Origin: Minisyncoccia bacterium
GTDB lineage: Bacteria > Patescibacteriota > Minisyncoccia > Phycocordibacterales > Phycocordibacteraceae
Reading direction: 5' to 3'
NCBI GenBank assembly: GCA_050011835.1
Contig: JBEKII010000001.1
Location: forward strand, 172,262-236,261
DNA length: 64,000 nucleotides
Shown here: positions 20,718 through 34,666 of the stretch, one piece after another
Numbering within the stretch: position 1 is the stretch's first letter
How the letters are laid out: each line of letters starts with the position of its first letter
Made by a program: the position numbers and the translations under genes
The notes under the pieces: generated by a model
The model's database searches: none
Told to the model about the DNA's origin: nothing
What the model saw: only the letters and a program-made list of their open reading frames with translations

Positions 20718-21635
20718 CTACTGCGTGATGATGAGTGTACGACGGATCGCATCAAATGTCGCGAGAAGTTCTGGCTGATTGAATTCTTGCACCATGCCTG
20801 CTGGATAATTTTCAATAACGCCGTAGTGGATGAAATACCGCATCGCGATGCACGGATTCGTGCCCGGAAGCGCATAAACCGTTTCTTCATAGCGATTGCC
20901 CGCAGCCGCGCCGGTTGACGAAGCGACCAAATAAGTAACGTCGCCATCAGTAAGCGTGCTCGTGGCTATATTCTGCGGGTCCAAGAAGAGAGTTGCGGCG
21001 CATCCACCTGCCGGCGGATTGGTCTTAGAGATTTCTTCAACGCTTATATAAGAACCGGGAGAGAGATTGGTGCCCGTCGCCACCGATGCGGGAATGGTGA
21101 ATTTGATGCCGGAGATATCTTTGTCGGGACCGAGTTCCTGATATTGATACGATTCGTCAACGGTATAATCAGCCGGCAGGCGAATAGAAAAACCATACGT
21201 GCTGTTTGAATAAATTTGCGGAAGATCCTGTCCAGCGGGATTGGGCGCCACCGCGACACAGCCGATGTAGTTTTTTTCCTGATTGTTTTCCAGAACAAGA
21301 ACGCCGTTGCCTTTACTCCAAAACACGAAAGACTCGTCGGTATTCGCATAACGGACCCCGTCGGCAGAGATGGTCTGCGCGAGCGTCATGGTGCTTCCAT
21401 CGGAGAACGTGAGCGCAACGCTTCCGCTCGGAATCGGCGGCTGACCGGGGCCAGGGGCGGGTTTGGTCACGCCTTGATAATACGTTGCCGTAATGGTCTT
21501 TCCACCGTTACAAGAATATAAGACGGTAGTAATCGGCTGACTTGAAACCTGCGAGGGAGTATGCGTGAGCCACAACGCGAGAATCGCGACGACAACAATA
21601 ATGATAAGAACGATAATTTTTGTGTGGGTAGTCAT
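20718..21635 (-). CDS. membrane-anchored protein with MliC-like (lysozyme-inhibitor-type) domain plus C-terminal unknown domain
   Basis: TM then VLYSCNGGKTITATYYQ...VALTFSDGSTMTL..SADGVRYANTDESFVFWSKGNGVLV pattern of MliC. Confidence 0.45.
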   Translation of the reverse strand: MTTHTKIIVLIIIVVVAILALWLTHTPSQVSSQPITTVLYSCNGGKTITATYYQGVTKPAPGPGQPPIPSGSVALTFSDGSTMTLAQTISADGVRYANTDESFVFWSKGNGVLVLENNQEKNYIGCVAVAPNPAGQDLPQIYSNSTYGFSIRLPADYTVDESYQYQELGPDKDISGIKFTIPASVATGTNLSPGSYISVEEISKTNPPAGGCAATLFLDPQNIATSTLTDGDVTYLVASSTGAAAGNRYEETVYALPGTNPCIAMRYFIHYGVIENYPAGMVQEFNQPELLATFDAIRRTLIITQ

Positions 21636-22288
21636 AGGTCTAGTATATATCGAAATGATTTACCGACAACTGCCCCGATAACCGAACCAATAATGGCGCC
21701 CGCGACGAATTCAGAAAACCAATGAATATTGGTGGAAACGCCGATGCCGATGTAGAGAGCGACGAGAAGCGCTCCGTACTTTATATATCGATTGCTACGG
21801 TACAGCATATAAAGCGCGACCGCCACCGCGAAGGCAACGGTCGTGTGCGTCGACGGCCAGCCCCAGAATGCCCCATGTCGCAGAAAGCCGAATTCAAATT
21901 GCCGGCTGATGTCAACGAGATTTTGCGAATGGAGCGGCGGCTGAACGCGGCCGGTAAATATTTTATAAAAAGATGAAATGAAGAGGCCGAAAAGCCCTGC
22001 CTCAGTGACGGCGTAAGCGGTATATATCGTGCGGATATTCTTGCGAACTTTTCCGACGATAAAAAGAATTATCGGGAGCAGTATCGGCACAATGCCGCCC
22101 ACAATAGCTGCCGGGAAGAGAATATTTTGGAGCCATACTTCCCGAGTGTGGGTAAAGTAGTACCAATCGAAATCCGTCACGACAATGATATACGTCAGCG
22201 CAACCGCAAGCAGTTGCCATAAAATATTTTTCCCCTTATAGCACCTAGCGATATCGGCGGCAAAACTTTTTAATATTTTGCCCGTCAT
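21632..22288 (-). CDS. PAP2-like integral membrane protein
   Basis: Six TM-like segments; WPSTHT (PSGH-like) and NIHWFSE (HxxxD/E-like) boxes. Confidence 0.4.
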   Translation of the reverse strand: MTGKILKSFAADIARCYKGKNILWQLLAVALTYIIVVTDFDWYYFTHTREVWLQNILFPAAIVGGIVPILLPIILFIVGKVRKNIRTIYTAYAVTEAGLFGLFISSFYKIFTGRVQPPLHSQNLVDISRQFEFGFLRHGAFWGWPSTHTTVAFAVAVALYMLYRSNRYIKYGALLVALYIGIGVSTNIHWFSEFVAGAIIGSVIGAVVGKSFRYILDL

Positions 22289-22338
22289 GGTGCAAGTATA
22301 TCATTCTGTGGTAGTGTGGGCGCAGAAGATTTTATGAG

Positions 22339-22587
22339 ATGAAAGGAGGTGGGATCGTGCCACGTAAGCGATGCTACATACATTCATGCCTCTTAAAGGT
22401 GAGGTATTCGAGCAAAGATGAGGCTCTAGCCTCTATAGAAGACCTCGCCAGGAAAAACAAGAATGACATTCTCGGGGCCTATCATTGCAGCTTTTGCGAC
22501 GGATGGCACGTGGGTCACCTGTCTAAAAAGCGCCGATCGGTTTTTCTTGCCGCCCAATGGGTAAAAATGGCGAGGAGACCAGCTTGA
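22339..22587 (+). CDS. hypothetical small Cys/His-containing protein
   Basis: CYIHSC...YHCSFCDGWH possible Zn-ribbon. Confidence 0.25.
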   Translation: MKGGGIVPRKRCYIHSCLLKVRYSSKDEALASIEDLARKNKNDILGAYHCSFCDGWHVGHLSKKRRSVFLAAQWVKMARRPA

Positions 22588-22613
22588 AAAGCCGCCTTCC
22601 TAAAGGAAGGCGG

Positions 22614-22796
22614 CTACATATTTTTATTACGGAATAACTTTTTTCTTCTAGCCCACAAAAATTTTATTAAAAAGATTATGAACAAAACCAAGAGAATCGG
22701 CCAAAAAAGTCCAATCATAACGGGAAACCCCAAAAACAAGGCCTTGAGATTTTCCCAAGTGAAAACCTGACCGAGTATAGTAAGAGAAGCATTCAT
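22614..22796 (-). CDS. hypothetical small membrane protein
   Basis: 60 aa, single hydrophobic helix. Confidence 0.2.
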   Translation of the reverse strand: MNASLTILGQVFTWENLKALFLGFPVMIGLFWPILLVLFIIFLIKFLWARRKKLFRNKNM

Positions 22797-22831
22797 AGAG
22801 GATAATTTCTCTTTTATATTATGCTGCCTGT

Positions 22832-23824
22832 TTAAGAACCGATTGCAACGGAATAATTATTAACCGATACTTGTACCTTCGGCGCATTTCTGGCGTTGAA
22901 GAAAAGCAATCCGAGTATGATAAGCAGTAAAAGCAATCCTCCGGCGATGATTTCTATAAACTGGACGCCTATCTTCACGACAATCGCGATAATGAGCAGT
23001 ATGAAAATAATGATGGCCAGAACGGAGAGAATATGAGTGACGGTGGATGTCGGAGATGTAGAAACCAACGCAAAGAAATTCGCGATTGATGATGAGATTG
23101 CAGATATTGCGGGAACTTGCGCTTGCGTGCCAAGCACCGCGGCCACCGGTGCTACAGCGCCTTTTTCAGGCGATACAGAGGGCGAAGGTGCTACTGTTGC
23201 CACCTTTGGCGCACCGGCAGCCGTAGCGCTCCCCTGTGACGAGGTGATTTCGGGAGAAGCGAAGAACTGCACGACAAATGTCGCCTCCTTGCCTTGATAC
23301 ATTCCATTGGCAGTGCCGATTCCTATTTGCGTGTATTGCGGCTTTACGATATTCGCGTGATGTTCTGGTGATGCCATCCATGCGCTCTCAACGGCCGACG
23401 AGTCGGTGAAGTCCACGGCGAGGTTTTCGCCCGCGTATTGGTACTTATATCCGACTAGATTGAGCCAATGCCACGGGTCTTTGCCGTCGGGACTGATATG
23501 TGCGAAGTATCCTTTCGTCGCCATATCGTTTGCGGCATCCTGCGCGGCTTGTGCGAGCTGCGCGTTCTCGCTCACGGCAGGGACATCATTTGCGGCACGA
23601 TCATCATTCGTGAGGGCTACGAGGGCACCGGGAAGCACCGCTCCGAGGAAGCTCGTATGCGGAAATACGAACTTGATCTGTGTGAGATACGCTCCTTCAA
23701 GAACTACAATCGCAAGCGCGATAACTGCTACCGATGCGACACGAAAGATGTGCGGCCTATATCCGTTATGTTTATGGGGAAAGAAATAGTGATGCACGCG
23801 ATGAGGAAGCGAGTGCTTACGCAT
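22832..23824 (-). CDS. CAP/SCP (YkwD-like) domain membrane protein
   Basis: N-TM, GYFAHISPDG...YAGENLAV...PEHHANI CAP motifs, C-terminal TM segment. Confidence 0.6.
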   Translation of the reverse strand: MRKHSLPHRVHHYFFPHKHNGYRPHIFRVASVAVIALAIVVLEGAYLTQIKFVFPHTSFLGAVLPGALVALTNDDRAANDVPAVSENAQLAQAAQDAANDMATKGYFAHISPDGKDPWHWLNLVGYKYQYAGENLAVDFTDSSAVESAWMASPEHHANIVKPQYTQIGIGTANGMYQGKEATFVVQFFASPEITSSQGSATAAGAPKVATVAPSPSVSPEKGAVAPVAAVLGTQAQVPAISAISSSIANFFALVSTSPTSTVTHILSVLAIIIFILLIIAIVVKIGVQFIEIIAGGLLLLLIILGLLFFNARNAPKVQVSVNNYSVAIGS

Positions 23825-23883
23825 ATTGAGCTAACAATAACAAACAATCCCGCTTCGGGCGGGACTGTTTACTCACACTTGGC

Positions 23884-24813
23884 TTAATTGCTGTTTCCGA
23901 GATCTGCCTCAACTTTGGCGATAGTCGCTTGATCAACTCCAAAGGATTGAAGTATCGATATGATTGCATTTACTTGCGCGGTCGTAAGACCAGCACCGCC
24001 GGAGCCAGAAGAAGAGGTCGTCTCCGGAGTTGTCGGTACAACGCCCTTATTCAAGAGAGCGAGCGTGAGCGGACCGACATAGCCCGTTTGCGGCAGGTTA
24101 TTCGCCTTTTGAAAGGCAATTACCGCCGCCTTCGTGAGTTGGCCGAAGTAGCCAGAAATCGTACCGGAATAGAATCCTTCGTCCGTGAGGAACTGCTGGA
24201 GCGCCGTTACATCAGCGCCGCGCGAGCCAACCGTGAGATTTTTGGTGAAGTTGTATGCGGCGGCACCGAGCACCTGACCTTGATGGGAAGTTGTGGTCGT
24301 TATGGCCGGTGTAGTGACCGGTACAAAGACCGGACTTATAGAACCACTAGAACCACCTCCGCCAGAGCTACCTAAAGGAACCGGTGTAAGGGTTGTGAAG
24401 GCGGATGTAGGTGTAATGGTGTATGTGTACGACGCGACGGTTGAGAACTGACCATCAGAATAGCATGAGATTGCCTCAATAGTCATTGTCGAACTCACGG
24501 GAATTGGACTGGAATAGACTGTTCCTGTAGATCCTGCAGAACAACCCAACAGTGTTGATCCATCAGTCCCGTAATGGATGCTTGATGCTCCATCGGCGGT
24601 CAAGGTCACGCTTTGCGCTGAATTGTATGAACCAGCGGCAGGAGTTGCTACCGGTGGTGCAATAACGACGCCGTTAACGGTGGCGCCAAGAGTGGCATTA
24701 AGACCTGTAGACAAGGTCCCTGTTACGGTATCAGCCAGTGCAACATTACTAATCGCAAACAGCCCAATCACGGCTGCCGCGAATACAGATGATTTCAGGA
24801 TAATTTTGTTCAT
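23884..24813 (-). CDS. secreted protein with Ig-like N-domain and peptidoglycan-binding (PG_binding_1) domain
   Basis: Signal peptide; LTVGSRGADVTALQQFLTDEGFYSGTISGYFGQLTKAAVIAFQ matches PG-binding repeat. Confidence 0.6.
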   Translation of the reverse strand: MNKIILKSSVFAAAVIGLFAISNVALADTVTGTLSTGLNATLGATVNGVVIAPPVATPAAGSYNSAQSVTLTADGASSIHYGTDGSTLLGCSAGSTGTVYSSPIPVSSTMTIEAISCYSDGQFSTVASYTYTITPTSAFTTLTPVPLGSSGGGGSSGSISPVFVPVTTPAITTTTSHQGQVLGAAAYNFTKNLTVGSRGADVTALQQFLTDEGFYSGTISGYFGQLTKAAVIAFQKANNLPQTGYVGPLTLALLNKGVVPTTPETTSSSGSGGAGLTTAQVNAIISILQSFGVDQATIAKVEADLGNSN

Positions 24814-24825
24814 AGATTTTCAGGA

Positions 24826-27720
24826 TTAGCTAACTGTCAATGTAACGTTAAGGTTGGTCACCGCCCCCGTTGCATCCTCCACCGGTGCCGTGAGAACCCA
24901 TGTTCCCGCCGTTTCGAAGGTCTGCTCCGAATAAATCGATGGCGTCAACGTCCATACATTGTTAGTAGCGTCGTAAACCAAGTTGCCGTAGGTCGCACTG
25001 GTACTCATGCCCGTTCCGTTGATTGTCACTGGATAACTCGTGATGCTCGAGTTCGCCCCGGTTATATCCACGGTCGCCGACGTCATGTAGTAGGCGGGCG
25101 GAGTAGTGGACATATCCTGAGGCACGGTAATCGTCCAGTTCACTCCGGAACCGACAGAAGTGATGCTGGGGGGAAGGCCGCTACCGTTCAGTGTGATGCT
25201 AGAGATTGCTAGCGGTGCCGCCCAACCATTCGTGTTGGTGATAGTAAGAGCAACTGTGACAGATGTTCCGTTGACATTCCCAGTCAATGTATATGTTCCC
25301 GCCGGGAAGTTGGCCGGGATGAACATTGGAGATGGATTGCCAACAGAATCTTGTGTTCCGTCTTGGATTTTGTAGTTTGTTCCATCATAGGTTATGTAGA
25401 ACATCGCTGTCTGAGTTGTTGCACCCGGAAGCGTGTTGATCAGATGCTGACCCCAAGTAGAATTCAGATTTGCTGAGTCTGCTAACTGGTTTGCTTTGTA
25501 GTACGCGCTTAGGTCAACTCCGCCCGTTGAGGTCAGCATAAATGAGATTTTTGCTGAACTTGTTAACGTCACATTGAATGGATCTGTCGCTGTGCTACTG
25601 AATTGAATTGACGTGTCACCCGTAACGGTCAACGCCGCTGTAAGTGCAGGTCCCGAACCGGCTGCAGTTCCATTGGTTAAACCGACCGACGAGTTCCAGG
25701 CCGGAGTAACTGCTGGAGTGGTGAAATTCAAGACGGTGCCAGGATACCATGTCCCGTTGACATAAGACCATGCTGCGAAGTAATACGTTGTTTTCGGTGT
25801 AACCGAGAGCCCGCTGACTGACGAAAGAGGAGCAGAAAAAGAGGCATTCGCATCGATAGGGCCAGAAATGTCTCCGTCGTTGTAAACTCCGGTTGGAGGG
25901 ACTGACGACCCTGTGCTGAACGTAGACGTTGAAACCCAGAATGAGTACTCACTAGCAATAGCATTCCCATTAATTCCATTCAGTGTTGCGCCAGTCGAAG
26001 TTACATCACGGGCAGCAACCGTCAGAGTGGTAAGAGGAATAGGATCAAATACAGCCGAGAGTATATGGTGTGTAGTAACATTTGTGAAGGTATAACTAGC
26101 GTCTGTATTTCCTGTGATCCATGCGAATCCCGTCTGACCAACTACCGATTGACCATCGACAAGCACATCTGAAATGTAGTAGTTCTGATCTGCAGTAATT
26201 TCATATGTTGGACTGCTAAATGTTGGGGTAACTGCGCTTATAGAACCTCCATTGCTATCGGAAATAGTAATGTTTTGGTTGGCTTCAATTACAATAACTG
26301 TCCTTATCACTTCTATCGCATGATTGCCGGCTGCGTCAACGGAATCATATGTCACGTGGTACGTACCCGATATTGAAGGATTTACAACGTCTCCACCAAT
26401 CGTGACAAGATCTGTGCCATCAACAATATCTGTGGCTACCGCTCCGAGTTCTGTATAAGTTCCGCCGACTACTATGTAGGTCGGATTGCCAGTGTTGCCA
26501 GAGCCGTTCAGTGTGATAATCGGTATATTCACAACGATGTCAAAGGTCGCTGAGTTGGAGCTGCCCGCGTGATTGCTGTCGCCATCATAAGTTGCATTGG
26601 CTGTCGCCGTGCCGACGTCAACGTTGCCCGTATAGGTTGGCGTAAGTTGGCCGCTCTGTCCATCGGAAGTCGAGTAGGAAGCGGTGCATGGTGTAAGGGC
26701 TAAACCGGTGTAAGGCTGAGGAGAAGCGGGGCAAGAGACCGTGGTGACAGACGCGGCTTGTGCGACTGTAACCGTGCCGTTCACATAAGCGATGGTGTAG
26801 TTGGAATCAACTGCGCCGGTGCAGGACGAGACCGTTCCCGAGACCGAACAAGTCGGTTGAGTGGTGAGTGAAGCATCGGTGTCGCCGTTAACGAATCCTA
26901 AATAGGTCGGAGTGATTGTGGGCGGTGTGCCGCCATAGGTCATCGTGCCGTCAGAAGCCGTGATGGTGAGTGGTGCCTTTACAGTGAATGAAGCGGTTGT
27001 TGAAGCAGGATAAAAGTCAGGACTACCGGCTTGCGATGCTTCAAGAGTAACAGCGCCGACGCCAGTTATCGTGGTTGTTGAGTCATTAATCGTTACTGGT
27101 CCGGAAACAACGCTGAATATGATAGGCAGCAAACCGGATGTCGAAGTTGCGGTTAAACCAAACGGCGCATCTCCAAAAGTTTTATCTGAAAGAGGTCCAA
27201 ACGAAACAGTCTGACTTGCCGGAGGATTGGTGGTAATGCCATAACTCGTCGAATATGATCCGCCTGCTGCACCCTCTGGAACTTGTGCCTCTACAGTTAT
27301 TTGAATCTGTCTGCCTCCTTGATGCATATCAAGATCTTCATTGGGGTTCAAATACATTGGACTGCTTAATGTGCTAGACGCAGTTATGCCAATGGCTTGG
27401 TCTTCGTCAGTGGCGTTTAACGACTGAGCGGAATAAAATTGAATGTTGCCATCTGCTGGTATGTAACCAAGAGCACTCGTCCAATCGTCAAATTCCATCT
27501 GTAAAATAGTTTGGTCCTTTGGAACAGTCACATCAAAAACCCATTTCCATCCTTTATCATATCCCCTGCCTGCGGTTGCATATGTTTGTACTGCTATGAT
27601 TTGTGTTACGCCCAAGACAACAGTCGGAGCATCAGCTAACGCGGAAGGAACAGAAATCCCGAAAACTAGAACGGAAAGAAGAACGGGGAGAGAAACGCGC
27701 AGTGCATTTTTCATATTCAT
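24826..27720 (-). CDS. giant secreted surface protein with Ig-like / MBG(YGX)-like repeats
   Basis: Signal peptide, 964 aa, Thr/Ser/Gly-rich, repeated TxTYxG..NGDT..NYxI..V.GTLTV motifs. Confidence 0.6.
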   Translation of the reverse strand: MNMKNALRVSLPVLLSVLVFGISVPSALADAPTVVLGVTQIIAVQTYATAGRGYDKGWKWVFDVTVPKDQTILQMEFDDWTSALGYIPADGNIQFYSAQSLNATDEDQAIGITASSTLSSPMYLNPNEDLDMHQGGRQIQITVEAQVPEGAAGGSYSTSYGITTNPPASQTVSFGPLSDKTFGDAPFGLTATSTSGLLPIIFSVVSGPVTINDSTTTITGVGAVTLEASQAGSPDFYPASTTASFTVKAPLTITASDGTMTYGGTPPTITPTYLGFVNGDTDASLTTQPTCSVSGTVSSCTGAVDSNYTIAYVNGTVTVAQAASVTTVSCPASPQPYTGLALTPCTASYSTSDGQSGQLTPTYTGNVDVGTATANATYDGDSNHAGSSNSATFDIVVNIPIITLNGSGNTGNPTYIVVGGTYTELGAVATDIVDGTDLVTIGGDVVNPSISGTYHVTYDSVDAAGNHAIEVIRTVIVIEANQNITISDSNGGSISAVTPTFSSPTYEITADQNYYISDVLVDGQSVVGQTGFAWITGNTDASYTFTNVTTHHILSAVFDPIPLTTLTVAARDVTSTGATLNGINGNAIASEYSFWVSTSTFSTGSSVPPTGVYNDGDISGPIDANASFSAPLSSVSGLSVTPKTTYYFAAWSYVNGTWYPGTVLNFTTPAVTPAWNSSVGLTNGTAAGSGPALTAALTVTGDTSIQFSSTATDPFNVTLTSSAKISFMLTSTGGVDLSAYYKANQLADSANLNSTWGQHLINTLPGATTQTAMFYITYDGTNYKIQDGTQDSVGNPSPMFIPANFPAGTYTLTGNVNGTSVTVALTITNTNGWAAPLAISSITLNGSGLPPSITSVGSGVNWTITVPQDMSTTPPAYYMTSATVDITGANSSITSYPVTINGTGMSTSATYGNLVYDATNNVWTLTPSIYSEQTFETAGTWVLTAPVEDATGAVTNLNVTLTVS

Positions 27721-28321
27721 TTTTATTGTTTTATAAAAATCGTCTCCATTATTAATTAAGTTTTACTAACACAGCAGACAATAAAGAAATGAGCTGTCAA
27801 ACTCTCCCGTAAGTCTACTCCCCTGCTATAAGCCGTCAATCCACTTGACAACTATCAATATTTTCGTTTCTGTTATCAAATTATCTCTCAAATGTCCCCC
27901 ATCCGTGGAGCCCAAAATATTTCAGCCGACAGCGAGTAATTTCGATGGTGAGCGATGGCCGTTAATGATGCGTACCTTCCCGGAAGAAACATGAAAATGG
28001 TCAGCAATAATCGCGACGATACGACGATTCGCCAGATTTTGAGCTGGCTTTTCCTTAACAGAGATTTCAAAGTGATCGGGAGAAATCATTTTTAACGATT
28101 CCTTCTTTGCGGCCGCCCGAACCAGGACTTTTACATACATGCAGGTACGGTACCATGGCGGGTTCAAATATCCTCCATCCGGCGGAGCTAAAGTTCTGAA
28201 CGTGTCCTGAAAAAAATGTCCTGCGATGGCAAACGGCACGTGTACGTGTATATAGTAGAATACTTCCGGAATATAAATCAGCTCTTCCGTCGTTAAACCA
28301 TACTCTGAAAGGGGGAATGAG

Positions 28322-28546
28322 ATGAAAATACTGACTGCATTGTTCATTGCGATTGCGATTTTCACTCTGCCGCTCAACGAATGGGAAAAGGCCTCCGAAC
28401 AGGAGAGAACCGATGTCTGTGAGAGAATGTTTAGAAGTTTCAAAGCGGACAATCCCTCATGCCTGAGAGTGAGGATCGGCACCCTCATCATCGGAAACGA
28501 GCTGAAGGTGCTCATCGAATGCGTGGAAAGCGGAACAGGAATATGA
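28322..28546 (+). CDS. hypothetical small secreted protein
   Basis: GGGGGA RBS 8 nt before ATG; N-terminal signal-like helix; 74 aa. Confidence 0.35.
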   Translation: MKILTALFIAIAIFTLPLNEWEKASEQERTDVCERMFRSFKADNPSCLRVRIGTLIIGNELKVLIECVESGTGI

Positions 28547-28735
28547 CGATCATACCCGTACCTCCGAACCCCAGTCCGTGGACGTAGTGGTGGATACGGT
28601 AAAGAGAAAGGTGAGAGGGTTCGGAGGAAGCACCAACCGCTCATCTTTTTCACCGCCCGGAGAGCGTGGACCCGTAATGGTTATGCATGCCGATGGGGTA
28701 TGTTGCAAATAGCCAAGACACGAAAAACTTCTACG

Positions 28736-28804
28736 CCGCATGATTCGCTCTGCGGTTTTTCTTTTTATACAAAACACATTCGAATATAGTCCAGTCAGCG
28801 GAAG
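28736..28804 (+). repeat. junction element copy 1
   Basis: CCGCA..TGCGG hairpin + TTTTTCTTTTTAT + TTCGAATATAGTCCAGTCAGCGGAAG. Confidence 0.55.
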
Positions 28805-28903
28805 TTTTTATTGTTATTGACCGATGACTGCGAGAAAGCTAACATCAGCAGCGGAACTTTGCTGTTCCTTATTAAACTCAAGAGGGGAAGGGGGGTGAGG
28901 AAG

Positions 28904-29593
28904 ATGAACAAAATCAGCCGCAGAGCTATTCTGGAAATCGCGAAGACGCTTGTTGGCAGTATCATCAACAAGGTTCCTATTCAACAACAAGTTGTCCAAA
29001 AACTTTCCAACATTCTGGGAGTCCAGAGATGTGTGATCTTCAGAGTCGGCAATCATCGCGAAGGTGATGACTACGACGTTGAAATCACGGCTGGCGTGCC
29101 CATTGAAGAACACGGCATCGGCCTCAAGGAGTCCGTCACAAAACATCCAGACATCGAAGCAGCCGTTCGTCTCGGTAAAGTGATGGTTATTGCCGATCCC
29201 AAAACATCATCGATGACTGTTCATCTCAGAGGGATCATCGAAAAGAAAAACATCACACAGATCCTGTATCTGCCGCTTATTTCTTCCGGAGTAAAAGTCA
29301 AGACCATCGGTGTAATAGTGCTTGACGATGCGGGGGAGAAAGATAATTTTGAGCCGGAAGAGATAGAATTTTGCGGTGAGGTCGGCGAGCTTATATCGCT
29401 TACTATGGATCGCGAGGAAATCCTGATTCAACAGATGAGAGATATCATCATAAACCGTGTTGCCGCGTTAGGCGGATTTACGAGCCGATTGGACAAATCC
29501 ACAGAAGAATTCTCTAAGGGCGTCAAGAACATCCTGGAAGAAATTCGCATGCTTGAGGAGAGCTGTCCGAAAGGAGGCAGAATTAATTTTTAA
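28904..29593 (+). CDS. GAF-like domain protein with C-terminal helical tail
   Basis: Start at internal Met after GAGGAAG; GAF-like core (..QRCVIFRVGN...LYLPLISSGVKVKTIGVIVLDD..). Confidence 0.45.
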   Translation: MNKISRRAILEIAKTLVGSIINKVPIQQQVVQKLSNILGVQRCVIFRVGNHREGDDYDVEITAGVPIEEHGIGLKESVTKHPDIEAAVRLGKVMVIADPKTSSMTVHLRGIIEKKNITQILYLPLISSGVKVKTIGVIVLDDAGEKDNFEPEEIEFCGEVGELISLTMDREEILIQQMRDIIINRVAALGGFTSRLDKSTEEFSKGVKNILEEIRMLEESCPKGGRINF

Positions 29594-29617
29594 CATGCTC
29601 TAAAAAGGAGAAGGGCG

Positions 29618-29821
29618 ATGAAAAATTTAATTGTGCTGATATTAATGATAGGTTTGGCAGGTCTGAGTTTGGTTGCTTGTGCAGCTTGTGCAAATATCTC
29701 CTTAAAGATTTATCATCCAATCGCTGGATCATTGCCACCAAATGTCGGCTACAATGACTGCAGCGCATCTGAGATGTGGAAGTGTTACTATCCACCTGGA
29801 ATCGTGATCGCAGTATGGTGA
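29618..29821 (+). CDS. small Cys-rich putative lipoprotein
   Basis: AGGAGA RBS; signal peptide with lipobox-like SLVAC; 5 Cys in 45-aa mature part. Confidence 0.45.
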   Translation: MKNLIVLILMIGLAGLSLVACAACANISLKIYHPIAGSLPPNVGYNDCSASEMWKCYYPPGIVIAVW

Positions 29822-30063
29822 GGCTTTGGGCACCTGATCGAACAAGAAACACGATTGAGTGCCCTTTTTATTTAGGTCATAAATCGCTGATGCGTTTGAA
29901 GCCCGAGATACCTTTATTTCGTCTCAAAACTTAGGTTCTAACGTCGACCGATATACAGAGCAAAAAATTGACAGTATTTTTATATCGTGATATACAAGAA
30001 GACAGACCGCGACTCAGGCTCATTTGTACAAATTCATTCCAAACTGATTCAAGGAGGTATGCC

Positions 30064-30375
30064 ATGCTTAAAGCAATTGCAACCACGCCCTGGTACTTCC
30101 GCTTCTTACCAAACTTCTTCTGGATGAAACCGTTCGTCGAGAAAGTCCGGATCGTGGACATGGCGAAGCGCGATCTCCAGCCGATTTCATCAGGTGATCG
30201 GCAGCGATATACCAGTTCGTACGCATATGCTGTCTGGGTCAAGACAAGTCACGGCAACCTTTACCTGGAGGTATCGAAAGAGGTCTATCACCGCTTAAGG
30301 CGGAACGACCAGTTAATTGTTCGCTACCAATGTGGTCGCCGAACGGAGAGACTCAGAGGTCATATCGCGCGTTAA
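30064..30375 (+). CDS. hypothetical protein (103 aa)
   Basis: Strong AAGGAGG RBS 6 nt upstream of ATG 30064. Confidence 0.4.
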   Translation: MLKAIATTPWYFRFLPNFFWMKPFVEKVRIVDMAKRDLQPISSGDRQRYTSSYAYAVWVKTSHGNLYLEVSKEVYHRLRRNDQLIVRYQCGRRTERLRGHIAR

Positions 30376-30422
30376 CCGCTACCTCGATGAGACAGGAAGC
30401 TAAACTTCTATCTCATGACAGA

Positions 30423-30493
30423 GGGGCGGTTTTCTGTTTCTACACATTCTACACAAAACATATTTGAACATCTTCCAGCCAGCGGAGCTGACA
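30423..30493 (+). repeat. junction element copy A
   Basis: GGGGCGGTTTTCTGTTTC...TTTGAACATCTTCCAGCCAGCGGAGCTGACA. Confidence 0.55.
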
Positions 30494-30521
30494 GTTCATA
30501 AAATCTATGGTATATTAGGAA

Positions 30522-30752
30522 ATGATGAGAACACGGGATTTTGATAAAGAGCGCAGTGAGCAGTCACATTCACTCGCTGACTTTTTGAATGTCTATAACG
30601 AGAACCTTTCTCCCGCCTTTCCTCGGGCGTCAATTGCCTTGCTTAAAGAATTTAAGAACACTCATCAGAATCTCTTTAAGTCGAATGGGGTGTGGTCGTT
30701 GGACCTTCACCGGAAAAAGGTCATGGATTGGCTACATCCTCGCTCAACATAG
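30522..30752 (+). CDS. hypothetical protein (76 aa)
   Basis: ORF only; preferred over overlapping 30589-30936 ORF whose product is low-complexity. Confidence 0.25.
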   Translation: MMRTRDFDKERSEQSHSLADFLNVYNENLSPAFPRASIALLKEFKNTHQNLFKSNGVWSLDLHRKKVMDWLHPRST

Positions 30753-30799
30753 TTCGAACTGTCCCGACCGCGCTAGCGGAGACCAACTTTCTGGTCTGA

Positions 30800-30910
30800 C
30801 CGCCACACTTGAGGAATCCGCCTACCTGGGCCATATTTCCTCAGTGGGCGGTTTTCTCTTTTCATACCGAATAGGTTTGAACATCCTCTATCCAGCGGCA
30901 ACTCTAACGC
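30800..30910 (+). repeat. junction element copy B
   Basis: CCGCCACACTTGAGG...CCTCAGTGGGCGG hairpin + TTTTCTCTTTTC + GGTTTGAACATCCTCTATCCAGCGGCAACTCTAAC; right end overlaps RelE 3' end. Confidence 0.55.
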
Positions 30911-31182
30911 TTCCCCATTTCCTTGTAGACCACTGAACGATGAAGAATGGCGAGTATGAGAACCTTGGTTCCTGCGATACGAAAAACAACGCGATAGTCG
31001 CCAATACGAAGCTTGCGGTATCCTTTTAGGGAGCGCCGCAGGGGTTTGCCATAAAGATCGGGGTAGGAAGAGAGTTTCTCTTCGATAGCGGCTTGTATTT
31101 TAACTCTCCAAGCAGATGTGAGTTGCGGGATGTCTTCCTCGACGACTTTCTGCTGATAGATAACCTCAAAATCTAGCGCCAT
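30904..31182 (-). CDS. type II toxin, RelE/ParE family
   Basis: LRIGDYRVVFRIAGTKVLILAILHR C-terminal signature; 92 aa. Confidence 0.75.
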   Translation of the reverse strand: MALDFEVIYQQKVVEEDIPQLTSAWRVKIQAAIEEKLSSYPDLYGKPLRRSLKGYRKLRIGDYRVVFRIAGTKVLILAILHRSVVYKEMGKR

Positions 31183-31394
31183 GCCAGGGAGTGAGGAAGG
31201 AATGAAGTTTTGCCCACATCACGCTTTCTGGCAATTTCATCAAGAACCTGATCTTCTTCAATCTCAAGAGCTATCCGAAGAAGGTGTTCGGCCTTCGTTG
31301 CCTGAGGAACTTGGTCGCGTTTAGCGAGTTTGCCGAGCAAATCATCTAGATCTTTGGAAACACTAATATTAATGCGTTTTTTGGTGGTGGCCAT
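31173..31394 (-). CDS. antitoxin, ribbon-helix-helix (CopG-like) family
   Basis: MATTKKRINISVSKDLDDLL RHH N-terminus; stop overlaps RelE start by 10 nt; ORF could also open at TTG 31412. Confidence 0.6.
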   Translation of the reverse strand: MATTKKRINISVSKDLDDLLGKLAKRDQVPQATKAEHLLRIALEIEEDQVLDEIARKRDVGKTSFLPHSLAWR

Positions 31395-31878
31395 ATGAAT
31401 AGAGTGTATCAAAAGTGTATCTATGTCGTCAATAGTATTAGGGTGAACAAGTGCACATCGTGAACATTACACAATCATCAAGAATGCTAACTTCCCTACC
31501 CTACATAGGTTCGAGCATCCTCTAGCCAGCGGAACTGACATTTTTATAGTTTGTGATAAAATTAAAGCTAGACAGAACATTCCAAAAAGAAAGGGAGGGG
31601 TCCATTATGAGTCATGAGATCAGGATTGTGTCGGCGTACAATGGACGACTGCACGAATCAACCATTCACAGGGCCGAGGTGCTCATTGGCATCGAGGTAG
31701 ACAGTAAGGTAGTTTTATTTCAACAATGAGGAGGCGAGAAGGCACGGAGTGACCTATGAATATGAAAAAGGTCGAGAGACGATAATTCGGGCGAAGTTCT
31801 AACATTAATTAACTCCTCGAATTCTGTGTCTACGTGGCAGAGATTACTGCGACGAACTCATTAAAGGAGGTGGTCCCT

Positions 31879-32223
31879 GTGGGCAGTGGCAATGTTGTTG
31901 CCAAAAAGTATTCCTCTAACACATTGGTGGTCCATTGGACTCTCGGTTCTTCCCTCCGTTTTGCTTGGGATGAGGGCGAAAACAAGTGGCGCTGTGTTTC
32001 GAGTTATAAGCTTATATCCTGCAACGCAGACCCCGCATTGAAGGTACTTGAATTCACAGCAGCCCCAATTCCTGACCGCTGTTACACTCCTGAGGAAGCT
32101 AAATCTCTAGCCCAAAGGCCGAGCCGATGGAAAAAGAGTATCAACGACCCATCAATTGACATTGATGACCTGGTACTGGAAGTTATGAGGTCACGAGGTG
32201 TCAAAGTAGAATGTCTCTACTGA
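31879..32223 (+). CDS. hypothetical protein (114 aa, GTG start)
   Basis: AAGGAGG RBS 7 nt before GTG 31879; followed by strong terminator. Confidence 0.4.
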   Translation: MGSGNVVAKKYSSNTLVVHWTLGSSLRFAWDEGENKWRCVSSYKLISCNADPALKVLEFTAAPIPDRCYTPEEAKSLAQRPSRWKKSINDPSIDIDDLVLEVMRSRGVKVECLY

Positions 32224-32226
32224 CTA

Positions 32227-32313
32227 CCGCCCACGAAAGCCGGATGGCTCTCGTGGGCGGTTTCTGTTTTTTATACTAAAGTTCAAACATCCTCTATCCA
32301 GCTCAACTGACCC
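32227..32313 (+). repeat. junction element copy C (includes rho-independent terminator 32227-32274)
   Basis: CCGCCCACGA-loop-TCGTGGGCGG + TTTCTGTTTTTTAT, then GTTCAAACATCCTCTATCCAGCTCAACTGACCC. Confidence 0.6.
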
Positions 32314-32578
32314 AATTCCCTCTCAACCTGTGCCCAATTGAGAGTTCTGAACTCATCCAGCCAGCGGAGCTACAACGTCACCGTTGAGGATTATTACTTA
32401 CACCCCACATGTTATAGCTTTTTGACTCGGTATTATTCCGGTCGTCTCATCTATACCAAAAATAAAAGCGGAGTATTCCGGATATAATTTATATAGGATT
32501 AACCCCGCCCTGACTATGAAGAAAAAACACTGGTTCAAGAAAAAATTCCTTGAGAAAAGTTTTAAACGCGGAGCTGAT

Positions 32579-33283
32579 ATGAAATTCGGAGACGTACCGA
32601 ATACGGGAGCTCCTTACACCCGCATTATCTCCGGGATTCGACCCTCGTTCTCGAGGAACAGAGATACCGTTATTGTTACCATCTACAGGGCACTACAGAA
32701 GGATCCAAAACAAGACCTTTACTACGTGATTGCTATCGACCGACGACGGTGCACGTATGTAGAGGAAGTGGAATTCAGTGCAGACCATATACAACGCATG
32801 CATTCTGACGAAATCAGCATGGATTTGGAAAGCGAATATAATGGGTTCTCTCGCCTACTGAGTGATGCGATACCCACCGAATTTTCGAGACCCTCATTTA
32901 CTTTCCATCGCAAAGACGGCAATCGGTTTTTGACCCCGCTCGGAGTACGGCGCGTATCCGGTTTATTTACTAAGGGACTGATAGTCTTGCCTTCAGATTT
33001 TAACGATTCTCACACCAGAGAGGAGATAAATCTTCTCCGGCAAGAGATGGATGCATATCCGAAAGATCCTATTGGCAGTACTCTATTCGCATTAACACTT
33101 GCCTTGGTGGCTGAAGTTGGCCTTACGCGCCAAAAGATTCTTATTCCTGAGAAATCTAAGCCAACACCGACACCAGGAACACATCCTGTCTTGACTGGAG
33201 GAAGGAATTTTGAAGAGAGCCCCGAAGGTCAGGAGATGCGGAAATTATTGGCCCAGTCAATGGCGTATTACAAAAAACATTGA
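32579..33283 (+). CDS. hypothetical protein (about 235 aa)
   Basis: GGAG 5 nt before ATG 32579 (ORF opens at 32516). Confidence 0.35.
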   Translation: MKFGDVPNTGAPYTRIISGIRPSFSRNRDTVIVTIYRALQKDPKQDLYYVIAIDRRRCTYVEEVEFSADHIQRMHSDEISMDLESEYNGFSRLLSDAIPTEFSRPSFTFHRKDGNRFLTPLGVRRVSGLFTKGLIVLPSDFNDSHTREEINLLRQEMDAYPKDPIGSTLFALTLALVAEVGLTRQKILIPEKSKPTPTPGTHPVLTGGRNFEESPEGQEMRKLLAQSMAYYKKH

Positions 33284-33289
33284 TTGGAT

Positions 33290-33544
33290 TTATAATCCCC
33301 CTTGAGGATTAGGTATTGGCAGTAATTCTGGCCAACTTGTTTCAAACACCCCATTAATGTCCATGGATAATGTAATCTTCAACTCGTTCGGCGGTCGCTT
33401 GTACTCGTCAGCGGGGACGCGTTCGACAGGGAAAACGACACTCAAAGACTGACCGCCAACATGAAGAGGAGCAATTTTCTGTTTGACTTGGCATATCTCA
33501 AACCTATCTACGTTTCTTTTCTTTGCGCTACGGTGTTTGCTCAT
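33290..33544 (-). CDS. hypothetical small protein
   Basis: ORF only. Confidence 0.2.
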   Translation of the reverse strand: MSKHRSAKKRNVDRFEICQVKQKIAPLHVGGQSLSVVFPVERVPADEYKRPPNELKITLSMDINGVFETSWPELLPIPNPQGGL

Positions 33545-33616
33545 GCGTCCATAGTACCATCACGAGAAGAGTTGGAAGATCATAAACCACTTTTATAGAG
33601 GGCGGCTTTCTTACCT

Positions 33617-34666
33617 TTACTTCGATGCGCTTGTCGTCGCATATTCTTGCGCGACTGATGCGTAGGCGGTGCGAGAAATATTCGCGATGATGGAACTCGC
33701 GGTCGGTACATCGGAAGAGCTGGTCATGACGCAGAGAAGATAGGGATGCGCCGGATAATAAATGATGCCGCAGTCGGATAATTCGACGCCGGTGGCGACG
33801 CCGTTTTGGGAGAGCACATGCTCGCCATATTTATTGGCGACGACTGTTCCCTTCGGCACTCCTGCGACGAGGCCGTTATCGAAAGTCGTTTGCGAGAGAA
33901 GTTTCAATGCCTGCTCGGAGGACTCGGGTGAAAGATATGTGGCGTTATAGAGAATACGGAAGAAAAGCCCGTACGTGCGCGCCGAGATCTGATAATTCGC
34001 GGAATCGTCTCCCGGATTCTGGATGCCGAGCGCGACATAGACCTCATTGAGAAAATCCGGATTGATGCGATCCAGCAGCGTGAAGGTCGCGCCGTTGTCG
34101 GAATCAATGATCATGCTGTTTATAAGGTCTTGAATGGAATAGTCATGGTTCGCGATGAGCGCCGACGGCGCCAGAAATGGATCATTCGGCATAACGCTCG
34201 GATCATAGGTGATGTCTTGTGAGAGTAGAGATGGATCTTCTTCCGCTTCCTTGTAGTACGCGATCATGGTCGGCACTTTGAGCAGGCTCGCGGGATAGTA
34301 AGTATCGTTCTGATTGATGCCGATCCACAGCCCCGCGTCAAGGTCGCGGAAATAGATCGCCGCGCGCGCCGCATTGCCTCCGCTCACTGCCGAATTAATT
34401 ATTGTTTGCAGAGAGTTCTTAAGGGACGTGTAGTCTCCAAGCGTAGTCGCCTCGGGCGTGCGATATGCGAGCAGGGGGTGCACGAAGGCGTAGGGGGATC
34501 CTTTTTCTTCAATGGGCGCGAACGATTGTTTGATTGAACTCACTATTGCGTTGGATTCCGCCCTGCCAATAAAATATCCCGCGGCGATCCCGACACACAA
34601 CCCGAACACTAAAAGCGTGACGCCCTTCAGGAGTGGGGAATGCTTGCCTTGCGCAAGGAAACTCAT
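33617..34666 (-). CDS. membrane-anchored class A beta-lactamase-like serine hydrolase
   Basis: N-terminal TM; SLLK (SxxK), IIDSDN (SDN), KYGE (KTG-like) boxes in class-A order. Confidence 0.6.
   Translation of the reverse strand: MSFLAQGKHSPLLKGVTLLVFGLCVGIAAGYFIGRAESNAIVSSIKQSFAPIEEKGSPYAFVHPLLAYRTPEATTLGDYTSLKNSLQTIINSAVSGGNAARAAIYFRDLDAGLWIGINQNDTYYPASLLKVPTMIAYYKEAEEDPSLLSQDITYDPSVMPNDPFLAPSALIANHDYSIQDLINSMIIDSDNGATFTLLDRINPDFLNEVYVALGIQNPGDDSANYQISARTYGLFFRILYNATYLSPESSEQALKLLSQTTFDNGLVAGVPKGTVVANKYGEHVLSQNGVATGVELSDCGIIYYPAHPYLLCVMTSSSDVPTASSIIANISRTAYASVAQEYATTSASK

Follow-up and report, generated by a model that had tools for sequence, protein, structure and literature searches.

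The accessory array and its genes

The stretch analyzed here, referred to as the window, comprises 64,000 nucleotides of contig JBEKII010000001.1 from a Minisyncoccia bacterium of the Patescibacteriota. Between the gene for a giant surface protein and a beta-lactamase-like gene, it contains an island of short open reading frames (ORFs) punctuated by seven copies of a 27-nt element, which we call the box. An earlier note, made from the sequence alone, had described this island as an AT-rich array of cassette-like genes. It is indeed modestly richer in AT than its surroundings, with a guanine-plus-cytosine (GC) content of 0.44–0.48 across 27–34 kb as against 0.50–0.57 in the flanks. A repeat search and nhmmer located the seven boxes, all on the plus strand (E=8e-9 to 5e-6 in the first scan), and nhmmer detected no eighth copy in the 64-kb window, the next-best match having E>1. 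A degenerate box pattern matched five times in the window and not once across 100 shuffles. The array consists of six units plus one possibly fused unit, and it is laid out, with its flanks, as follows.

27922–28140, minus: DUF167/YggU gene that flanks the array on the left (PF02594, E=2.8e-11 over the 70 C-terminal residues)
28162–28188, plus: box c1 (GTTCAAATATCCTCCATCCGGCGGAGC), 22 nt upstream of the DUF167 start (nhmmer E=6e-8 and 4e-9)
28189–28804, plus: cassette 1, with a 74-aa signal-peptide protein (28322–28546), a hairpin with a T-run and box c2 (28778–28804)
28805–30488, plus: cassette 2, with a GAF gene (28904–29593), a 67-aa Cys-rich lipoprotein-like ORF (29618–29821), a 103-aa ORF (30064–30375), a terminator and box c3 (30462–30488; nhmmer E=2e-8)
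30488–30516, plus: promoter-like site, −35 CTGACA from the last base of c3 and extended −10 TG-N-TATATT (10 of 12 consensus matches, with TG)
30489–30901, plus: cassette 3, with a 76-aa protein (30522–30752), a terminator and box c4 (30875–30901; E=3e-7)
30902–31535, genes on minus: cassette 4, with a ParE-family toxin (30904–31182), a ribbon-helix-helix (RHH) antitoxin (31173–31412) and box c5 (31509–31535, plus)
31535–31562, plus: promoter-like site, CTGACA from the last base of c5, 16 nt, then TAAAAT with TG (10 of 12 matches)
31536–32307, plus: cassette 5, with a 40-aa ORF (31607–31729), a 114–129-aa ORF (31834/31879–32223), a terminator (32226–32261) and box c6 (32281–32307; E=5e-6)
32308–32370, plus: empty 63-bp unit ending in the last box, c7 (32344–32370), a GTTCTGAAC variant (nhmmer E=1.5e-6)
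32516–33544: distal flank, with a 255-aa ORF (plus, 32516–33283) and an 84-aa ORF (minus, 33290–33544), neither with a Pfam or PADLOC match
33617–34666, minus: beta-lactamase-like gene past the distal flank (349 aa, PF13354, E=3e-38)

The gene list of the earlier note was broadly right, judging from ORFs and Pfam matches, except that a long minus-strand ORF (27922–28653) is real only in its final 73 codons, which are the DUF167/YggU gene. The GAF protein (PF01590, E=6e-11) was recovered, and so was the inverted RelE/RHH-type toxin–antitoxin pair, with a toxin of the ParE family (PF05016, E=7.6e-10) and an RHH partner (PF01402, E=0.0018) flanked by the co-oriented boxes c4 and c5. No Pfam family was found for the ORFs of 103, 76, 114–129 and 235–255 aa in the island or for its remaining small ORFs. 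Homologues of the 76-aa protein occur in related loci (L003, L032, L064), and in L039 as a one-gene cassette between two boxes. A defense-island reading of the window cargo was rejected, PADLOC having returned no match among it.

The seven boxes mark the unit boundaries, as had been claimed of the gene junctions in general, with no box between the GAF and lipoprotein genes. Ahead of the 103-aa gene, there is only a decayed candidate (29935–29961) that matches at 16 of 27 positions and is not significant alone (nhmmer E=0.75). It is preceded by CAAAACTTAGG and followed by a promoter, AAAATTGACA-N17-TATATC, and would split cassette 2, which possibly consists of two fused units. A further possible box just downstream of the DUF167 3′ end (27889–27914) is without statistical support. 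Promoterless cassettes are a feature of the integron arrays to which the earlier note had likened the island; here, sigma-70-like sites begin at the last base of c3 and of c5 (consensus matches only), and the former would drive cassette 3. Units as small as the empty one are seen elsewhere too, e.g., 27 nt in L068, and the GTTCTGAAC variant of c7 is also present as a decayed box in L021. No closing box lies past 32370, so the 255-aa and 84-aa genes are beyond the last box and represent either the oldest unit or chromosomal flank.

As the earlier note had observed, the window has no recombinase of its own: no recombinase family appeared among the window ORFs scanned (25 of the 73 families of the bulk scan being listed), and tblastn detected no serine-recombinase homologue. 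The only tRNA gene is a tRNA-Trp (2405–2476), 26 kb from the island, and no tRNA-Asn exon was found anywhere within the 64 kb.

Anatomy and spread of the box

In an alignment of 39 copies from the window and other genomes, the conserved core is 27 nt long (GTTCGAACATCCTCYANCCAGCGGAGC) and has sharp edges. Information content drops from 1–2 bits within the box to about 0.1 in the first base or two past the terminal GGAGC, and upstream there is only a loosely conserved T-run, then ATAC-AAAAC-AG. The usual order is the intrinsic terminator of the preceding gene, the box and then, often within 0–8 nt, a TTGACA-type −35 with an extended −10; TTGACA is found 0–8 nt past the boxes, and also past the tRNA-Asn end described below, in many related loci (consensus matches). 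Because it lies between a terminator and a promoter, the box would probably not be transcribed. Its orientation is unchanged beside an inverted unit (the toxin–antitoxin pair of the window, c4–c5), for an empty unit (63 bp, c6–c7) and where the terminator of a convergent gene comes next, and in these settings a promoter role for the box makes no sense.

Single-stranded DNA of the seven window elements was folded for both strands. The box was unpaired throughout, and five of the seven elements folded the same as shuffles. The terminator hairpin before c6 reached −21.3 kcal/mol (z=−5.9), and the fold at c2, the most decayed clear copy in the window (nhmmer E=2e-6 and 0.0035), was weak (z=−1.6). 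The box is thus unstructured and only the gene-specific terminators fold; therefore it is not an attC, and the attC-like bulged hairpins that the earlier note had suggested looking for were ruled out on both strands. Conservation resides in primary sequence, not in structure. Dyad symmetry is limited to the 8-bp GTTCGAAC, which does not match GTTRRRY, in agreement with the note's remark that canonical attC cores are lacking.

Several other identities for the box were considered and rejected. By inspection, these were a sigma-54 promoter (GG-N9-GC spacing, wrong orientation), a Xer/dif-like site (no dyad symmetry beyond GTTCGAAC) and CRISPR (repeat spacing of 0.06–5 kb does not fit). A known RNA was dismissed since Rfam, at gathering thresholds, matched only the tRNA-Trp in the window. 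A phage attP was ruled out as well, three box patterns being without match in 2.9 million viral contigs.

One low-GC lineage (L070, L077, L052, L026, L057 and others) shows additional conserved elements. Many of its cassettes open with a bidirectional-terminator-like hairpin, AAAAATAACC...GGTTATTTTT, and a second T-arm-like palindrome, GTTCGAACC, lies about +47 to +62 past the box ends, just upstream of the extended −10 TGNTATACT. In L095 and L098, AGGTTCGAAC is found about 56 nt past the tRNA end. Such GTTCGAACC-type palindromes are candidates for an operator, an accessory recombinase site or a promoter element.

The search of other genomes that the earlier note had proposed was carried out, and the box recurs in Patescibacteria loci. 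Thus, an exact-pattern scan (one genome per species) found it in metagenome-assembled genomes of Paceibacterota, Parcubacteria, Kaiserbacteria and Nomurabacteria, together with one locus labelled Saccharibacteria (L010), and a metagenome scan contributed 74 further loci. An nhmmer profile built from the collected copies gave 201 matches, including a few in non-Patescibacteria loci that were set aside; about 200 boxes are spread across about 85 Patescibacteria loci. Single matches in Lachnospiraceae, Hyphomicrobium and Nitrospira (weak nhmmer, no terminator-ATAC context) and one in a locus labelled Saccharibacteria (L008, a single weak copy among ordinary genes) were taken for chance or coding-sequence matches. 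Among the 49 non-redundant loci that hold more than one copy, 158 of 158 boxes are co-oriented within their locus. Start-to-start spacing has a median of 803 bp, a 10–90% range of 415–1812 bp and extremes of 53 and 5452 bp, and the densest arrays hold up to 8 boxes per 8 kb. We found no paper containing the box in the searchable literature, and nothing there on integrons or serine recombinases in Patescibacteria that describes such arrays.

The arrays stack up to 11 or more single-gene units, which encode small secreted or membrane proteins, toxin–antitoxin pairs, kinases, transporters, and restriction or reverse-transcriptase modules. One cassette type (L034:1658–2932, L059, L083) carries, just before a box, a 424-aa ORF and a 668–1030-aa partner. 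The former is a reverse transcriptase with a YxDD motif, to which two RVT_1 matches of the batch scan probably correspond, and the N-terminus of the latter resembles, by eye, the type I restriction enzyme HsdR. The two together may be a defense-type module.

Boxes as recombination junctions

All loci were compared pairwise, and internal right-hand ends of alignments with at least 85% identity were counted. Ten of the 22 such homology ends lie at or just past the box end in both partners, six of them on the last base of the box. For example, L023/L053, L028/L046 (the latter equal to L022), L078/L083, L046/L044 and L059/L034 are identical through ...CCCAGCGGAGC and unrelated from the next base. 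The boxes are mosaic boundaries between strains.

They are also asymmetric in their linkage. Where a pair shares only the upstream side, the boxes match in eight of eight cases, variable positions included, and seven are identical; in L021/L077, the box differs at two positions and the shared unit is 96% identical. Where only the downstream side is shared, the left-hand boxes are unrelated or one of them is a tRNA end: L021 has a decayed box and L077 a canonical one, L068 a decayed box and L037 and L082 canonical ones, and L040 a tRNA end at the position of the box in L046. The box is linked to the upstream unit only. Therefore, it belongs to the left-hand unit as part of that unit's 3′ end, and the joint falls immediately after GGAGC.

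Whole units behave accordingly as movable entities in the comparison of loci. The unit common to L021 and L077 has different neighbors on both sides, and another unit stands directly after the tRNA in L051 and after a box in L001, L016 and L088. The presence or absence of individual units, which the earlier note had asked to be compared, was thus found in related loci (L021/L077, L051/L001), with divergence right after GGAGC; for the strain of the window itself, the comparison yielded only two assemblies that break at c6/c7. We regard the cassette and junction nature of the boxes as well supported.

tRNA-Asn at the head of the arrays

In 13 loci, ARAGORN placed a tRNA-Asn(GTT) gene on the strand of the first box and upstream of it. 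Seven more loci, seemingly devoid of it, carry a group I intron (RF00028, 66–85 bits) in the anticodon loop, with recognizable 5′ and 3′ exons. In a direct count, the tRNA-Asn 3′ end lies ahead of the array in 19 non-redundant loci, intact in 11 and interrupted in 8. The gene never occurs within or after an array, and one locus, L025, has it on the opposite strand. We consider tRNA-Asn well supported as the anchor of the arrays.

The box and the tRNA-Asn end are equivalent. The tRNA end of L040 (CAGGTTCGAATCCTGCCGTCGGAGC) occupies the position of the box in L046, after which 5.4 kb follow at 99.4% identity in both. What comes after the tRNA end does not differ in kind from what comes after boxes, being a promoter or a bidirectional terminator.

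In the window, box c1 sits at the site held by tRNA-Asn in related genomes. There, the DUF167 gene neighbors tRNA-Asn, and the window DUF167 shares 44% identity (tblastn) with that of L010, which adjoins an HNH gene and tRNA-Asn. The two genes stand between DUF167 and the array in L010, and c1 abuts DUF167 directly in the window.

Intron-bearing tRNA-Asn(GTT) genes, which ARAGORN misses, are located at L001:6967–7192 (minus), L017:7058–7305 (minus), L025:877–1084 (minus), L027:3328–3557 (plus), L030:11231–11461 (minus), L068:1918–2157 (plus) and L081:4983–5256 (minus). In L017, the intron contains a small ORF for an HNH endonuclease, and in L001 and L010 such an ORF adjoins tRNA-Asn. Such an HNH protein, upstream of the arrays in eight loci, was considered as the cassette enzyme and rejected, being intron-encoded or adjoining tRNA-Asn; it is best read as the homing endonuclease of the tRNA-Asn group I intron.

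Half-site geometry and a candidate serine recombinase

Two motifs are common to the box and the 3′ part of tRNA-Asn: an outer CAGGTTCGAA, which in the tRNA belongs to the T-arm, and an inner GCCNNCGGAGC, which comprises the acceptor strand and the discriminator base. The box reads CAGGTTCGAA plus 8 nt plus 12 nt, whereas the tRNA-Asn end reads CAGGTTCGAA plus 3 nt plus 12 nt, making the box 5 bp wider. Measured from CAGGTTCGAA to GGAGC, the lengths are 27–30 bp in the box and 22–25 bp in the tRNA-Asn end. In large serine integrases, the distance from the crossover to the motif for the zinc-ribbon domain is 5 bp shorter in attB sites than in attP sites, and attP half-sites measure 25–26 bp (PMC3783163). 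The same 5-bp shift separates the box from the tRNA-Asn end when the two sequences are compared. On this reading, the tRNA-Asn end would be an attB-type half-site and the box an attP-type half-site.

A large serine recombinase was found together with the site in related loci. In L003, an element extends from the gene of a large serine recombinase (Resolvase domain, E=3e-20) as far as a DUF5677 gene followed by a box. Its recombinase has more than 1000 homologues, and the few of these whose source is named come from Patescibacteria. L095 (78% identical) and L098 both have the recombinase gene in convergent orientation to tRNA-Asn and overlapping the tRNA's 3′ end, and a box follows 7.5 kb (L095) and 9.6 kb (L098) further along the tRNA's strand. 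The distal box of L095 comes after a DUF5677 gene and is itself followed by a small cassette and another box. Recombinase-bearing elements ending in a box are thus seen in L003, L095 and L098, with the tRNA-Asn end visible at the other side in two of them; such elements are bounded by the tRNA-Asn end and the box. In these three loci, an enzyme with Resolvase, Recombinase and zinc-ribbon domains stands on an element beside the site, and in the window it does not. A truncated copy of the recombinase lies just after a box in L023.

More distant recombinase homologues abut tRNA-His and tRNA-Gly in the same convergent layout. Therefore, the clade targets tRNA 3′ ends, and its tRNA-Asn members are those that end in a box. 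We regard the assignment of the enzyme as moderately supported. The anchor and the likely enzyme were both found only in loci related to the window.

In this clade, gene calling repeatedly divides the recombinase gene into two or three successive ORFs in different frames, a Resolvase part and then a Recombinase/zinc-ribbon part (L095:10001–11615, L098:10001–11598, L099:10001–11622, L100:7743–9415, L101:10001–11693). The last ORF overlaps the tRNA gene by 28–40 nt, in antisense to it. The genes could be pseudogenes, they could undergo programmed frameshifting, or the enzyme could be genuinely split.

State and surroundings of the window array

Among arrays with at least three copies, none has boxes as diverged as those of the window, which average 3.5 mismatches as against 1.27 elsewhere, in a comparison set that favors well-preserved boxes since its loci were gathered by exact box matches. 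Box c7, in addition, carries an indel. Given the divergence of its boxes and the absence of both tRNA-Asn and a recombinase, the array is probably an old relic detached from its tRNA-Asn anchor, and its own present activity is doubtful.

Two further, independent assemblies of the same strain (L103 and L104; 100% identity over 12 kb) stop at window positions 32203 and 32429, respectively. These contig ends lie within about 80 bp of c6/c7, at the distal array edge. They are compatible with population heterogeneity and with repeat-induced breaks, and prove neither.

On its left, the array is adjoined by a cluster of genes for secreted or envelope proteins. The immediate neighbor encodes a surface protein of 964 aa that contains MBG and bacterial Ig-like domains (24826–27720, minus), beyond which PG-binding/CHB_HEX, CAP-domain, PAP2 and MliC-like proteins are encoded (region 20718–24813, minus). 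The rest of the window is housekeeping in character and includes genes for RNA polymerase subunits, RNase R, ClpB, SMC, DnaG, HisRS and sigma-70.

Discussion

The array is not an integron, because neither an IntI, among the ORFs scanned, nor an attC hairpin was found and cassettes carry promoter-like sites of their own; it is an integron-like accretion array for which tRNA-Asn is the docking site. The membership of the integron family suggested in the earlier note is not supported, and the note's alternative, an accretion island built by repeated site-specific insertions, is closest to the evidence. On balance, we favor the view that this is a tandem array of small mobile cassettes at tRNA-Asn, likely built by a large serine recombinase and moved in trans. 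More tentatively, such arrays may represent a Patescibacteria-wide, integron-like mode of gene capture docked at tRNA-Asn, in which a serine recombinase would act on sites with one conserved half and recombinase-less, promoter-bearing cassettes (median 0.8 kb) would be mobilized in trans.

The following mechanism is proposed from the arrangement of the sites. A cassette would be a self-contained transcription unit (promoter, one to three genes, terminator) ending in a 27-bp attachment-site half, and the box would imitate the T-arm and acceptor end of tRNA-Asn(GTT). Arrays would grow from the 3′ end of the tRNA-Asn gene. Thus, a circular unit, in which the box is joined to the unit's start, would recombine with the junction of the tRNA-Asn end and its flank just after CGGAGC, giving the order tRNA, unit, box and flank. 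Because the crossover falls immediately after CGGAGC, the tRNA would stay intact, and because only left halves are conserved, both products would resemble the substrates. The next unit could therefore dock at the tRNA end again, and a block between the tRNA end and a box could be excised. The Patescibacteria clade of large serine recombinases described above would be the most likely enzyme, and most cassettes, having no recombinase, would be moved in trans. Action of the recombinase on the boxes and the trans mobilization of small cassettes are what we infer from these sequences. Events between two boxes would require P × P recombination, which is unusual; like-with-like recombination of this type has been described for the integrase of A118 and for CcrAB (PMC3783163).

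Having proposed this mechanism, we would note several points that weigh against it. First, the site is not that of a canonical serine integrase. The alignment has no conserved right half-site past GGAGC, no inverted copy of the box stands at the left end of the L095 or the L098 element, and there are no two related inverted half-sites around a central dinucleotide; GTTCGAAC-like motifs, seen twice at +14 and otherwise at +47 to +62, are too far away for a canonical half-site. Second, the link to the enzyme comes from three or four loci, with a recombinase remnant in only 2 of 85 array loci. Many recombinases of the clade are called as two ORFs and may be defective, and a search made as an independent check of the 5-bp shift found no box-like mimic within 11.5 kb for the relatives at tRNA-His and tRNA-Gly. 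Third, 18 loci with at least 1.5 kb of upstream sequence, the window included, have no tRNA-Asn. Fourth, no circular intermediate or excision junction was observed, and no free donor element was seen in the viral contigs. Finally, the loci were gathered by exact box matches, so the set is skewed to well-conserved copies.

A rival explanation is that the boxes are passive scars, i.e., inactive old attR sites left where full-size elements had inserted serially at tRNA-Asn and had then eroded by deletion. Full-size elements of 7.5–9.6 kb between the tRNA-Asn end and a box do exist, the recombinase of L023 is truncated, distal boxes tend to be the most decayed (L070; c6 and c7 of the window), and the window's boxes are the most diverged of any array. 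Nevertheless, we hold this explanation to be unlikely. The recombinase gene is proximal to the tRNA and overlaps the junction, so deletion would rarely be precise at the left, yet the units start exactly past GGAGC, and no recombinase remnant was found in 83 of 85 loci. The units form complete modules of promoter, gene and terminator (median 803 bp), and the L021/L077 unit has different neighbors on both sides. In addition, most boxes are 0–1 positions off the consensus across host genomes of 36–54% GC, which speaks for selection on the site.

Another candidate for the maker of the array is a tyrosine integrase like those of classical tRNA-gene islands, with the boxes as displaced or element-borne fragments of tRNA 3′ ends. 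tRNA genes are classical targets of such enzymes, repeated partial tRNAs mark the islands in question (Islander; tycheposons), and the box opens with a T-loop-like GGTTCGAA. The box, however, is no piece of a tRNA: it exceeds the tRNA 3′ part by 5 nt, differs from it in the middle and is conserved in its own right, so that neither an exact tRNA 3′ copy nor a displaced fragment at the far end, both typical of classical tRNA islands, is present. A crossover in the T-loop or the anticodon loop would link the repeat to what lies downstream, whereas the box goes with the upstream unit and the tRNA is unsplit. Furthermore, no Phage_integrase was among the top 25 families listed for 122 ORFs (237–634 aa) from 50 loci, and none turned up in the window scans. 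Altogether, this candidate seems improbable.

We assign about the same low probability to the view that no dedicated enzyme is involved and that the boxes are portable homology for general recombination after DNA uptake. The order of terminator, box and promoter is also that of phage regulatory cassettes, and the promoter-stem-loop cassettes of T4-type phages are an analogue. Most arrays are without a nearby recombinase, and homologous exchange also yields breakpoints at conserved repeats. Such exchange, however, would place junctions anywhere in the repeat and need no tRNA anchor, whereas the box is linked to its upstream side only, and over its full length. The tRNA-Asn end replaces the box yet shares only short motifs with it, not 27 bp. 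The sharp 27-bp edges and the strict polarity look like a protein-binding site.

The box might instead be regulatory, i.e., an operator, an insulator or an upstream promoter element, as in the shared punctuation module that the earlier note had entertained. This reading accounts for the terminator-box-promoter order, since the box lies between the terminator and the −35 in many units, and one lineage has a second GTTCGAACC just upstream of the extended −10, about 50 nt past the box. It accounts neither for the strain breakpoints nor for the equivalence with tRNA-Asn. The distance from box to −35 varies over 0–8 nt, the orientation is kept at inverted or empty units (c4, c6 and c7 of the window; L016), and boxes are confined to one locus per genome region, unlike a regulon. 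We therefore think it very improbable.

Lastly, a true non-canonical integron with its IntI out of view is scarcely credible: short, mostly co-oriented cassettes with an inverted toxin–antitoxin unit do recall chromosomal integrons, and arrays without a nearby integrase (CALINs) are known and give a precedent, but neither strand has an attC-like fold and it is sequence, not structure, that is conserved, the cassettes carry promoter-like sites, tRNA-Asn holds the attI position, no IntI recurred in related loci (among the top 25 families listed for 122 ORFs from 50 loci, plus 20 ORFs taken individually), and the recombinase found with the site is a serine recombinase.

Patescibacteria, also known as the candidate phyla radiation, are ultra-small bacteria with tiny genomes in which few mobile elements have been recognized, and the ways in which accessory genes pass between them are poorly understood. 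A conserved tRNA-Asn hotspot would give a concrete and searchable mechanism for their strain-level variation, with the 27-nt box as a simple marker for finding such islands in metagenomes. If it is true that one half-site holds all the conserved information and that the 5-bp attP/attB shift applies, this would be an unusual serine-recombinase system, possibly useful for engineering.

Comparison with known systems

Chromosomal integrons are similar in having tandem short, mostly one-gene units of one polarity with the site at the unit's 3′ end, a crossover at the very edge of the site with almost nothing conserved to its right, a single docking site at the array head, inverted toxin–antitoxin units and a recombinase that is often not nearby. 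They differ in using the tyrosine recombinase IntI, whereas the enzyme linked to the present arrays is a serine recombinase. Their site is a structure-conserved hairpin, as opposed to a 27-bp conserved duplex sequence. Here, moreover, the tRNA-Asn 3′ end is what docks the units, which have their own promoter and terminator in place of Pc.

Other systems are based on tyrosine recombinases too, namely the integrases of integrative and conjugative elements (ICEs) and XerC/D. The arrays of cis-mobilizable elements (CIMEs) related to Streptococcus ICEs and the pdif modules of Acinetobacter plasmids share with the present arrays the use of an enzyme encoded elsewhere by recombinase-less, site-bounded modules, and both carry small accessory and toxin–antitoxin modules. 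The pdif sites alternate in orientation and are dyad-symmetric, whereas the boxes are all direct and their symmetry is limited to the 8-bp GTTCGAAC.

Islands seeded at tRNA genes (Islander-type islands and the tycheposons of Prochlorococcus) likewise grow beside a tRNA by repeated site-specific insertion, with newer elements pushing older ones outward and partial-tRNA-like repeats scattered along the island. Of the tycheposons, a minority rely on large serine recombinases (bioRxiv 10.1101/2020.12.28.424599). Their repeats are true tRNA fragments, and their elements are kilobases long with an integrase and replication genes. In contrast, the box is a conserved mimic 5 nt longer than its model, the tRNA is unsplit, and nearly all units are minimal and integrase-less.

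The staphylococcal cassette chromosome elements (SCCmec/SCC), inserted by the large serine recombinases CcrAB where rlmH has its 3′ end, use the 3′ end of a conserved housekeeping gene as docking site and leave that gene undamaged, end in a direct repeat that imitates the gene end, and form tandem arrays with recombinase-less elements presumed to be moved in trans. All three features have their counterpart here. The differences are the tRNA target, the phylum, the size of the units (0.05–5 kb with a median of 0.8 kb, as against 3–60 kb) and the site, a 27-bp half-site with 5-bp attP-type spacing as against a 15–18-bp core. CcrAB is also among the few serine recombinases reported to recombine like-with-like sites (PMC3783163). 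By analogy, then, the tRNA-Asn arrays appear to combine an integron-like architecture with an SCCmec-like logic.

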